Below are positions 17,781 to 18,208 of a stretch of DNA of 64,000 nt, in pieces (position 1 is the stretch's first letter; every line of letters begins with the position of its first letter). A program made the translations under genes and the position numbers. Origin of the DNA: Escherichia coli (lineage in GTDB: Bacteria > Pseudomonadota > Gammaproteobacteria > Enterobacterales > Enterobacteriaceae); NCBI RefSeq assembly GCF_003334785.1, contig NZ_QOWV01000014.1, one strand, 5' to 3'. The notes beneath the pieces were generated by a model. That model was given only the letters and a program-made list of their open reading frames with translations, was not told the DNA's origin and did no database searches.

Positions 17781-17796
17781 CTGATTAAAAACCCAG
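17781..17796 (+). promoter_or_regulatory. Candidate LexA (SOS) box CTGATTAAAAACCCAG upstream of ybfE
   Basis: CTG-N10-CAG 16-mer with an AT-rich centre, about 120 bp upstream of the ybfE ATG. ybfE is, to my recollection, a LexA-regulon member; the exact site is my inference. Confidence 0.45.
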
Positions 17797-17914
17797 CGTC
17801 CGCGTCGCTTTCCGCGCGTGGGCGTTGGCGTGACTCATCGCGCTGATGTATTATGGCGCGCTATCCATCCGGGCAGAGGCCTGGCTGATTGTTTCCCCCG
17901 AAGTCACCAAGATC

Positions 17915-18208
17915 ATGGCCAAAGAACAAACGGACCGTACGACATTAGATCTGTTCGCGCACGAGCGTCGACCGGGACGACCGAAAACTAATCCGCTTTC
18001 GCGCGATGAACAGCTGCGTATTAATAAACGCAACCAGCTAAAACGCGACAAAGTACGTGGCCTTAAGCGTGTCGAACTGAAGCTGAACGCGGAAGCTGTC
18101 GAGGCGCTGAACGAGCTGGCGGAGTCGCGCAATATGAGCCGTAGCGAACTGATCGAAGAGATGTTAATGCAGCAACTGGCGGCGCTGCGTAGTCAGGGCA
18201 TCGTTTAA
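17915..18208 (+). CDS. ybfE: Small basic protein YbfE with a C-terminal ribbon-helix-helix-like region, 97 aa
   Basis: Track ORF 17846..18208 trimmed to ATG 17915 ([88 protein letters not shown]...). Confidence 0.8.

Follow-up and report, generated by a model that had tools for sequence, protein, structure and literature searches.

CopG (RepA of plasmid pMV158) and Arc/Mnt are minimal ribbon-helix-helix (RHH) repressors which repress the promoters of their own operons, and most small RHH proteins are regulators of their own operons. YbfE of Escherichia coli has in common with CopG and Arc/Mnt a strand-helix-helix unit of about 45 residues, and it fits CopG with an rmsd of 0.8-1.0 Å over 37-41 residues. 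Unlike these repressors, YbfE begins with about 50 extra residues that are conserved and comprise a GRP arm and a basic helix, and it is encoded by a chromosomal core gene located ahead of fldA and fur.

This locus has also to be compared to the canonical SOS operators of E. coli (recA, sulA, umuDC and others). The site upstream of ybfE shares with them the CTG-N10-CAG arrangement and the A/T-rich centre. It differs from them in that it is without the TGT/ACA extension (it has CTGA...CCAG), it lies upstream of the promoter and not within it, and it is not conserved. Fernandez de Henestrosa et al. reportedly placed ybfE in the LexA regulon experimentally in 2000, by Northern blots on lexA+, lexA(Def) and lexA(Ind-) strains.

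The window analysed here is DNA of E. coli K-12: the ybfE locus shows 100% identity to MG1655, and YbfE is 100% identical to the K-12 protein. The locus occurs in 5425 of the 5426 complete E. coli genomes, in which it is core, syntenic and not mobile. The annotated order is ybfF, ybfE ("LexA regulated protein", the name used by RefSeq and NCBIfam alike) and fldA. YbfE scores 169.1 bits against the NCBIfam equivalog model NF008671 (PRK11675), for a cut-off of 62, over residues 1-94 of 97; it is a member of this "LexA regulated protein" family itself and differs from it in nothing. The gene, its RHH class and the LexA-like box are all already in databases or papers, so little in this catalogue is new.

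The coding sequence occupies 17915-18208 on the + strand (97 aa plus stop), with its ATG at 17915 in a context, CATGGCnAAAGAACAAA, that is invariant. This is the 97-aa frame given in the preliminary description, and the C-terminal segment quoted there is present in the translation. A 120-aa YbfE, reported by many gene callers, was rejected: its start falls inside the conserved -10, and the 97-aa form is preferred because the added in-frame stretch shares bases with the promoter and shows no conservation.

The RHH domain covers residues 50-93 (18062-18193, + strand), with a strand at 50-58 and helices at 59-72 and 76-93. Pfam RHH_1 (PF01402) matches residues 52-89 with E = 2.9e-10, over model positions 1-38 of 39. 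Searched against PDB sequences, the family profile finds the CopG-family regulator 7by2 (E = 5e-4), NikR, CopG, YiiF and ParG. The AlphaFold monomer (pLDDT 88) is extended over 48-58 and then forms helices 59-71 and 76-93. In the linked-dimer model the sole strands, 50-58 and 171-179, are paired, with a core pLDDT of 85-90. The top PDB fold matches returned by Foldseek are all RHH proteins, with a TM of about 0.83 and an rmsd of 0.8-1.6 Å to CopG, Arc, CopA(SO) and AmrZ. The turn between the helices (residues 73-76) reads (G/N)-h-(S/T/N)-R in the homologue alignment, being N-M-S-R in E. coli and G-(L/I/M)-(S/N/T)-R in most homologues. Pfam, PDB sequence profiles, AlphaFold and the fold search thus agree with the RHH fold first suggested from the sequence, and the predicted structure adds the paired ribbon of the linked dimer. 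According to these models YbfE, a small protein, would bind DNA as a dimer through a CopG/Arc-type RHH at residues 50-93, whose two strands would pair into a ribbon reading the DNA major groove.

The N-terminal half is rich in Arg and Lys, as had been described, with 15 of these residues within positions 1-51. The conserved basic extension preceding the RHH domain is composed of DRTTxDLF, a GRP(K/R) arm and a basic helix (residues 30-47; 18002-18055, + strand), for which AlphaFold gives a pLDDT of 96-97 over residues 31-50 and about 82 just before. The codons of Gly21-Arg22-Pro23 lie at 17975-17983 (+ strand), and these three residues are nearly invariant, each reaching at least 90% conservation in alignments that extend to homologues of about 33% identity. 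In the homologue alignment the motif DRTTxDLF...GRPK is even better conserved than the RHH domain. As in the minor-groove arms of AT-hooks and of the Hin recombinase, Gly-Arg-Pro has basic flanks in YbfE (RPGRPK); the likeness of this AT-hook-like or Hin-arm-like core covers three residues only. By analogy, the extension may add minor-groove or backbone contacts to the DNA.

The promoter scan of 17600-18400 finds a sole promoter-like site on the + strand, a sigma-70 promoter at 17825-17854 with a -35 TTGGCG (17825-17830), an 18-nt spacer and a -10 TATTAT (17849-17854). The same hexamers were assigned by genomic SELEX with the RpoD holoenzyme (PMC3946193). In this region CGTTGGCG and GTAT(G/T)ATGGCGCGCT are invariant across Enterobacteriaceae. 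From the hexamers and their conservation, transcription is expected to start near 17860-17863. Directly after the -10 lies a G+C-rich discriminator, GGCGCGC (17855-17861, + strand), formed of invariant columns, from which we infer growth-rate or stringent control; the stationary-phase shut-off (PMC4161252) and the late down-regulation (PMC5999292) of the gene fit this reading.

Two RNA hairpins accompany this promoter. Hairpin 1 (17791-17831, + strand) is a conserved stem-loop in the 3' region of ybfF whose 5' arm contains CCCAG of the LexA-like box and whose 3' arm holds TTGG of the -35. Its dG on the + strand is -27.9 kcal/mol with a z of -2.97, against a z of +0.37 for the minus-strand copy. 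When 72 sequences are aligned without gaps and without fitting to a model, 72.9% of cells pair, compared to 30-49% when slid, and the 72-sequence alignment contains 92 double-change cells for 51.5 +/- 5.3 in shuffles. We rejected hairpin 1 as a minus-strand terminator (the stem followed by TTTTTAAT), for its stem depends on G-U pairs and is stable only as + strand RNA. Hairpin 2 (17866-17899, + strand) is in the ybfE 5' UTR, with a stem 17869-17874/17879-17884 and outer pairs 17866-17867/17886-17887. It is followed by a conserved TTGTTTCCCCC, was flagged as terminator-like by the scan, and looks like a terminator or an attenuator. Folded one by one, nearly all Enterobacteriaceae sequences have a hairpin at this position, with differing stem sequences. 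In the model-fitted alignment 89.5% of cells pair, compared to 23-48% when slid, and 5 of 8 pairs have compensatory changes. The stability of the E. coli sequence alone is not unusual (z +0.22), no structure came out of RNAalifold when the 5' UTRs were simply aligned with MAFFT, and an Rfam search of 17600-18400 returned nothing for E up to 5.

The LexA-like 20-mer AACTGATTAAAAACCCAGCG, published as the ybfE "SOS box", lies at 17779-17798, 119 nt before the ybfE ATG and 4 nt after the ybfF stop codon. Its 16-mer core CTGATTAAAAACCCAG (17781-17796) is found where the preliminary description had placed a candidate LexA box; this box is not new, the identical 16-mer being listed as the ybfE box in PMC2585105. 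The published heterology index (HI) is 11 (PMC11228462, Table 1), for an accepted limit of <15 for LexA boxes. Our own scores are 10.7 with the unsymmetrised matrix and 11.85 with the symmetrised one, which rank the 20-mer second-best and best in the window, respectively. In leave-one-out scoring it is nevertheless weaker than 21 of 22 known LexA boxes, and equally good sites are expected by chance 0.4 times per 64 kb of first-order Markov sequence, roughly 30 per genome. The bare CTG-N10-CAG pattern is rejected as evidence for LexA: it occurs 30 times in the window for 12.6 expected, an excess that probably reflects the bias for CTG and CAG codons, and it is uninformative. The 16-mer is real, with its two triplets intact and an HI under the limit, but its score is weak and its statistical weight alone does not make it a LexA box. 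LexA-like 20-mers also cover the uof/fur -10 in a few genera; we judged them a chance resemblance to CTGTACAAT, and E. coli has CGG, not CAG, at this position.

Both CTG and CAG are retained in Escherichia, Citrobacter and Yokenella only (80 loci), and the Citrobacter and Yokenella versions have HIs of 14-17. In Salmonella, Klebsiella and Enterobacter the box is lost, as it is in every homologue more distant than these. No LexA-like site was found upstream of the distant homologues, the best HIs being 15-23 in H. ducreyi, Bermanella and Maribrevibacterium. The bases of the box overlap other elements, i.e. the context of the ybfF stop codon, an A-tract and the base of the covarying hairpin 1, in which CAG of the box pairs with TTG of the -35. 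In E. coli ybfF (17011-17775, + strand) ends with TAA at 17773-17775; in the alignment many other genera have instead a TGA inside the "box", at the equivalent of 17782-17784. TGATTAA is duplicated at the end of ybfF, the two copies being 13 bp apart.

With respect to the promoter, 26 bp lie between the end of the box at 17798 and the first base of the -35 at 17825, and the box is located about 73 bp upstream of the presumed transcription start. The operator overlapping or abutting the core promoter, as expected if LexA excluded RNA polymerase, is not seen at ybfE. The scan of 17600-18400 gives no alternative promoter over the box, and reading 17740-17800 by eye reveals only hexamers matching 2-4 of 6 positions, without the T at position 6 of the -10.

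Downstream, ybfE is followed by fldA (flavodoxin 1; 18348-18878, + strand), with which it shares a transcription unit. The flavodoxin encoded by fldA is essential, and the product of fur is the iron regulator. Co-transcription of ybfE-fldA-uof-fur has been described (PMC4161252), and no terminator-like site was found in 17900-19200. The gene fldA follows ybfE in 82 loci: 79 of the 80 enterobacterial ones, i.e. every locus reaching far enough downstream, H. ducreyi and two metagenomic loci. In Haemophilus ducreyi the gap between the two genes is 10 nt. The word "orphan", applied to ybfE by the preliminary description, is thus misleading, since synteny and the co-transcription data (PMC4161252) make it the promoter-proximal member of a unit, ybfE-fldA-(uof)-fur, that is conserved. 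This gene order could nevertheless be inherited without functional coupling. The search for a common operator motif upstream of the distant YbfE homologues gave none that is convincing; ATGATG recurs there and is indistinguishable from a -10 hexamer.

According to the current annotation ybfE is directly repressed by a LexA dimer bound at 17779-17798, repression being relieved by RecA-stimulated cleavage of LexA. We regard this as possible but rather doubtful. In its favour, CTG and CAG are intact and at the right spacing, the site is the best of the window with the symmetrised matrix, and there are the Northern data said to date from 2000. Its HI of about 11 falls between the values of two genuine targets, dinB and polB (PMC11228462, Table 1). 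The gene polB is truly LexA-regulated with a comparably poor box of HI 13. The gene is given as LexA-regulated in a review (PMC6590174) and in PMC11039860, and UV activates a ybfE promoter-GFP fusion (PMC5999292). However, azidothymidine (AZT) induces ybfE 4.0-fold in RNA-seq with a LexA dependence of 0.74 and an SspA dependence of 2.9, i.e. induction is not reduced by lexA3 (PMC11228462). Ciprofloxacin does not change the ybfE transcript in two studies (PMC11002266, PMC11125564), and the mutagen MX does not induce ybfE in Salmonella (PMC2225428). Salmonella ybfE, for which no SOS box was found, is yet induced by nalidixic acid (PMC8072944). To these data are added the 26 bp that separate the box from the -35 with no other promoter over it, its restriction outside Escherichia to Citrobacter and Yokenella at an HI of 14-17, and the constraints that the stop codon and the hairpin impose on its bases. 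The proposal that ybfE would be SOS-inducible is therefore poorly sustained, with a weak box, upstream of the promoter and lost in relatives, and a literature that reports LexA-independent induction or none. Induction after some replication stresses is probably mainly LexA-independent, and the LexA-like site probably does not control ybfE. LexA would be at most a minor, Escherichia-specific input, because the site is weak, outside the polymerase footprint and explained by other constraints.

RHH domains are common in antitoxins, and YbfE had been considered antitoxin-like; it could be an orphan antitoxin, or what is left of a type II toxin-antitoxin module (CopG/ParD/BrnA type). This is very improbable. 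The NCBIfam match to BrnA, an antitoxin, is weak, 21.4 bits being far below the 60-bit cut-off, and the Foldseek matches to CopA(SO), TacA, AtaR and VapB have to be set against the absence of any adjacent toxin gene in the 88 loci. No toxin gene adjoins ybfE in the window either, as already noticed: the enterobacterial neighbours are ybfF (an esterase), fldA and fur, and those of the distant homologues differ, none being of a known toxin family. Antitoxin and defence readings were also rejected after PADLOC gave no match and PHROGs returned generic RHH repressor families only. YbfE is without a C-terminal toxin-binding tail, as the RHH domain is C-terminal and ends the protein, and the gene is core and syntenic, not mobile. 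Somewhat less improbable, although still a long way from favoured, is that YbfE has an architectural function or activates a partner, like the RHH proteins ParG, omega and MatP: the RHH dimer would fix it to the DNA, and its flexible conserved N-terminal tail would act on some other protein or on DNA structure, in place of classical repression. The order found in YbfE, a disordered basic N-terminal tail and then a C-terminal RHH, is that of ParG (plasmid TP228) and omega (pSM19035), and ParG and MatP are among the sequence and fold matches. These matches are weak, however (E = 0.1; Foldseek E >1), and the similarity is marginal. Unlike the situation of ParG and omega, neither a partition ATPase gene, ParA-like or other obvious partner, nor a centromere-like repeat array is nearby. 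The conservation of DRTTxDLF...GRPK above that of the RHH domain suggests a specific interaction. Insertions in ybfE or its deletion improve survival after genotoxic drugs (PMC10165496), but this Tn-seq phenotype could be polar on fldA or fur.

The reading that we prefer, to which we give a probability of about 0.6, is that of a known ybfE encoding an RHH protein, with a conserved promoter and operon, a weak LexA-like site and a likely autoregulatory function. The sigma-70 promoter TTGGCG-18-TATTAT, with its GGCGCGC discriminator, would drive ybfE as the first gene of ybfE-fldA-(uof)-fur. The LexA-like 20-mer would lie outside the RNA polymerase footprint and would be assembled from the ybfF stop context, the A-tract and the base of an RNA hairpin pairing with the -35 region. 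By analogy with the small RHH repressors, the most likely role of YbfE is that of a regulator of its own operon, and it may repress or tune its own promoter and hence the expression of ybfE-fldA.

An extension of this reading, which is unlikely as it stands, would make YbfE the dedicated, LexA-independent regulator of the flavodoxin/Fur unit, acting at its own promoter as an RHH dimer with AT-hook-like arms. Together with the hairpins at 17791-17831 and 17866-17887, YbfE would then set the output of ybfE-fldA-(uof)-fur, at a level depending on growth state and replication stress. If so, the name "LexA regulated protein", which a whole gammaproteobacterial family now bears, would rest on a fortuitous, Escherichia-specific sequence.

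The preferred reading, that of a likely autoregulator with a weak LexA-like site, calls for caution: among the roughly 30 SOS genes of the textbooks, one is probably listed owing to a weak, lineage-specific site which is located outside its promoter and overlaps a stop-codon context and a conserved RNA hairpin. The name given to the whole family stems from one claim made in E. coli and was passed on to organisms in which this site is absent. As a guide to what YbfE does, its conserved link with fldA and fur is more promising than the SOS response.

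The window comes from E. coli K-12. Its region 17600-18400 is 100% identical to MG1655, with ybfF (esterase), ybfE ("LexA regulated protein") and fldA as annotated genes; among complete E. coli genomes, 5425 of 5426 contain this region. The ybfE gene occupies 17915-18208 (+) and encodes 97 aa with 15 Arg/Lys among residues 1-51; the ORF, the peptide quoted from it and the Arg/Lys-rich N-terminal half of the preliminary description are thus right. Public gene calls (among proteins P0001-P0051) often give YbfE 119-136 aa, with a start 5' of 17915, and are over-extended because this start overlaps the ybfE -10 region; a 120-aa form from the in-frame ATG at 17846 was rejected, its start falling on the conserved -10 region of its own promoter. 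No recognisable Shine-Dalgarno precedes the ybfE ATG (17890-17917, +); a conserved TTGTTTCCCC(C)GAAGTCAC does, and CATGGCnAAAGAACAAA is invariant.

The CTG-N10-CAG 16-mer reported about 120 bp upstream of ybfE was located at 17781-17796 (CTGATTAAAAACCCAG), 119 nt from the ATG; the corresponding 20-mer (the box, AACTGATTAAAAACCCAGCG, 17779-17798) begins 4 nt past the ybfF stop codon. The assignment of ybfE to the LexA regulon reportedly originates with Fernandez de Henestrosa et al. 2000. Both ybfE and its LexA-like box are already known: the identical 16-mer is tabulated for ybfE (PMC2585105), a heterology index (HI, lower values being closer to known LexA boxes) of 11 from Courcelle et al. 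2001 is listed for it (PMC11228462, Table 1), ybfE figures among LexA-regulated genes in a review (PMC6590174), and YbfE matches NCBIfam NF008671, "LexA regulated protein", with 169 bits for a cut-off of 62. Our literature search found no functional characterisation of the YbfE protein.

YbfE is very probably (about 0.9) a ribbon-helix-helix (RHH) DNA-binding dimer. Pfam RHH_1 matches residues 52-89 (E = 2.9e-10), a profile from 30 homologues compared with solved structures retrieves RHH proteins only (the CopG-family regulator 7by2, NikR, CopG, YiiF, antitoxins, ParG), and PHROGs likewise gives only RHH-type repressor families; PADLOC returned no match for YbfE. AlphaFold2, given the homologue alignment, predicts four helices (8-15, 30-47, 59-71, 76-93) and, at 48-58, an extended segment (pLDDT 88). 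RHH domains fold only as dimers, so two YbfE copies joined by a Gly-Ser linker were also predicted, with a matching tandem alignment. The only strands of this model are 50-58 and 171-179, each followed by two helices (core pLDDT 85-90), i.e. the predicted paired ribbon expected of the fold. The best Foldseek matches in the PDB are CopA(SO), Arc, CopG-DNA, NikR, ParG, MatP, AmrZ and several RHH antitoxins (TM ~0.83, rmsd 0.8-1.6 A across ~40 residues), with non-significant E-values, as expected for a domain of 45 residues. The RHH fold proposed earlier is therefore borne out, structure prediction included.

The best-conserved residues lie outside this domain: Gly21-Arg22-Pro23, kept in homologues down to ~33% identity, in the context DRTTxDLF...(R/K)xGRP(K/R)T-NPLSR and followed by the confidently predicted basic helix 30-47. 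The N-terminal half thus appears, from conservation and the model, to be more than basic filler. We take the GRP core with its basic flanks to resemble AT-hooks and the minor-groove arm of Hin-type recombinases. The dimer would bind DNA via the ribbon, with assistance from both GRP arm and basic helix.

To score the box we used an HI of the Berg-von Hippel type based on 22 E. coli LexA boxes of the literature, ybfE excluded. The box has an HI of 10.7 (unsymmetrised) or 11.85 (symmetrised), in agreement with the published 11, and ranks best or second-best among the 20-mers of the 64-kb window. Leave-one-out scoring places 21 of the 22 known boxes ahead of it (HI 2.6-10.75), and sites this good are expected by chance 0.4 times per 64 kb, or ~30 times per genome (first-order Markov, same composition). 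Five of the training boxes (yebG, dinI, dinB, dinD and the 16-mer common to umuDC and sbmC) are confirmed verbatim in PMC2585105. The bare CTG-N10-CAG pattern occurs 30 times in the window vs 12.6 +/- 3.8 in shuffles, most simply owing to the abundance of CTG (Leu) and CAG (Gln) codons, so it is no evidence for a LexA site. By its score the box would permit LexA binding, without arguing strongly for it.

Conservation was followed in 80 genome loci of Enterobacteriaceae and some Erwiniaceae. Only three genera retain both CTG and CAG in the orthologous 20-mer: Escherichia (HI 11.85), Citrobacter (HI 13.97) and Yokenella (HI 17.0). Salmonella shows CAT, in Enterobacter CTG is replaced by TTG, and Klebsiella, Kluyvera and others lack both triplets. 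The lowest HI reached upstream of distant homologues (H. ducreyi, Bermanella, Maribrevibacterium, metagenomic loci) is 15-23. LexA-like 20-mers (HI 10.8-12.2) also overlap the uof/fur -10 (CTGTACAAT) in Mangrovibacter, an Enterobacter MAG and the pair Erwinia sp. JUb26 / Pantoea coffeiphila (L068/L079 ~4067, L072 4068, L076/L078 4043); only Mangrovibacter and the Enterobacter MAG have both CTG and CAG there, and E. coli has CCTGTACAATGTCCCGG at 18968-18987, with CGG instead of CAG. We ascribed these resemblances to chance.

The conserved portion of the box, TGATTAAAAA, has other explanations. Its TGA terminates ybfF in Citrobacter, Enterobacter, Kluyvera and others, the E. coli stop being an earlier TAA (17773) made by a TGATTAA duplication; the length of the ybfF C-terminus therefore varies by a few residues between genera. 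TGATTAA occurs twice, 13 bp apart, in 17769-17788 (+). The right half of the box, CCCAG, is the base of hairpin 1, a strong + strand RNA stem-loop at 17791-17831 (dG -27.9 kcal/mol, z -2.97) whose 3' arm is formed by CGTTGG in the -35 region and which relies on G-U pairs, the opposite strand being unstable (z +0.37). Over 72 distinct enterobacterial sequences in a gapless alignment unfitted to the structure, 72.9% of cells pair, vs 30-49% with slid partners, and 92 double-sided changes are found vs 51.5 +/- 5.3 after shuffling (0 of 500 shuffles reach the observed value). Position by position, 44-65 of the 72 sequences allow the box C-A-G to pair with the -35 T-T-G. Every element of the box can thus be explained without LexA.

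A conserved UUAAAAA lies on the 5' side of hairpin 1. Lacking a downstream U-tract, this hairpin is not a classical terminator; possible roles are stabilisation of the ybfF 3' end or occlusion of the promoter during read-through. Hairpin 2 (17866-17899, +) sits in the inferred ybfE 5' UTR, 5-10 nt from its beginning, ahead of a conserved TTGTTTCCCCC; its stem sequence varies by genus at a constant position, and in E. coli alone its stability is not unusual. It resembles a weak terminator or attenuator, and could serve ybfF as terminator and ybfE as leader element at once. The ybfE promoter is embedded between these two covarying hairpins. Rfam gave no match near ybfE; its gathering-threshold matches in the window are the sroC sRNA (41550-41712, +), a cluster of five tRNA genes (32680-33159, +) and the ES036 (CssrF) sRNA (30312-30354, -).

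This promoter, TTGGCG (17825-17830), an 18-nt spacer and TATTAT (17849-17854), is the sole + strand sigma-70-like site between ybfF and ybfE, and genomic SELEX with RNA polymerase holoenzyme led to identical hexamers for ybfE (PMC3946193). In a 24-genus alignment CGTTGGCG and CTGATGTAT(G/T)ATGGCGCGCT are invariant throughout Enterobacteriaceae; Erwinia and Pantoea, too, retain the -10 block. The -35 lies 26 bp downstream of the end of the box, the box centre is ~73 bp upstream of the inferred transcription start, and the promoter scan found no second promoter over the box. The box is thus outside the core promoter, whereas known SOS operators are inside or adjoin it, e.g. that of recA between -35 and -10 (PMC5999292).

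The invariance of the 19-20 nt block CTGATGTAT(G/T)ATGGCGCGCT (17844-17862, +) exceeds the need of a -10 hexamer. Besides a heptad-like TGATG-TA-TGATG repeat (TTATG in E. coli) it holds the near-palindrome ATGGCGCGCTAT and a GC-rich discriminator. It is a candidate operator and/or stringent-control element; the invariant GGCGCGC discriminator would fit growth-rate or stringent control. An 18-nt direct repeat (83% identity, 111 bp apart, +) has one copy in the ybfF codons for VLRAIR (TATTACGCGCTATCCGTC, 17741-17758) and the other across the ybfE -10, discriminator and start (TATGGCGCGCTATCCATC, 17852-17869), and may be a coincidence from coding sequence.

As to SOS induction, a ybfE promoter-GFP fusion does respond to UV, though its kinetics are those of an outlier and it is strongly down-regulated late (PMC5999292). 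The 4.0-fold increase under azidothymidine (AZT) is LexA-independent, with a 2.9-fold SspA dependence (PMC11228462), ciprofloxacin does not significantly change the transcript in K-12 (PMC11002266) or EHEC (PMC11125564), and MX does not induce it in Salmonella (PMC2225428). Nalidixic acid induces Salmonella ybfE, where no SOS box was found (PMC8072944), in agreement with our alignment; such box-free induction argues that the response needs no LexA. Direct repression of ybfE by LexA appears doubtful.

The claim of an orphan holds in that YbfE has no toxin partner, but the gene is not isolated: the order ybfF-ybfE-fldA-fur is found in every enterobacterial locus with enough flank, Haemophilus ducreyi keeps ybfE-fldA-fur with a 10-nt ybfE-fldA gap, and a metagenomic locus has ybfF-DUF2788-ybfE-fldA, fldA starting 3 nt past the ybfE stop. 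Oceanospirillales-type homologues have different neighbours. On a 606-bp contig (L056) of an assembly labelled Geodermatophilus sabuli (actinobacterium), an enterobacterial ybfE, its protein 87% identical, is found together with the fldA start; this is almost certainly contamination. In E. coli no terminator-like site separates ybfE from fldA, and by RNA-seq ybfE is co-transcribed with fldA, uof and fur, its promoter being switched off in stationary phase (PMC4161252). Both transposon insertion in ybfE and deletion of the gene are reported to improve survival after genotoxic drugs (PMC10165496); this gain would be compatible with a regulatory role as well as with polarity on fldA and fur, a possible confounder of the SspA result also.

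By analogy with CopG, Arc and most small RHH proteins, YbfE might act at its own promoter and thereby affect ybfE-fldA expression; we regard this autoregulation as tentative. The present analysis shows the RHH fold, as predicted, conservation of both the GRP arm and the promoter, the operon context and a weak, non-conserved box outside the promoter. The SOS-controlled orphan regulator, though the most interesting claim of the preliminary description, is its weakest part, and the family name "LexA regulated protein" rests on a probably fortuitous site.
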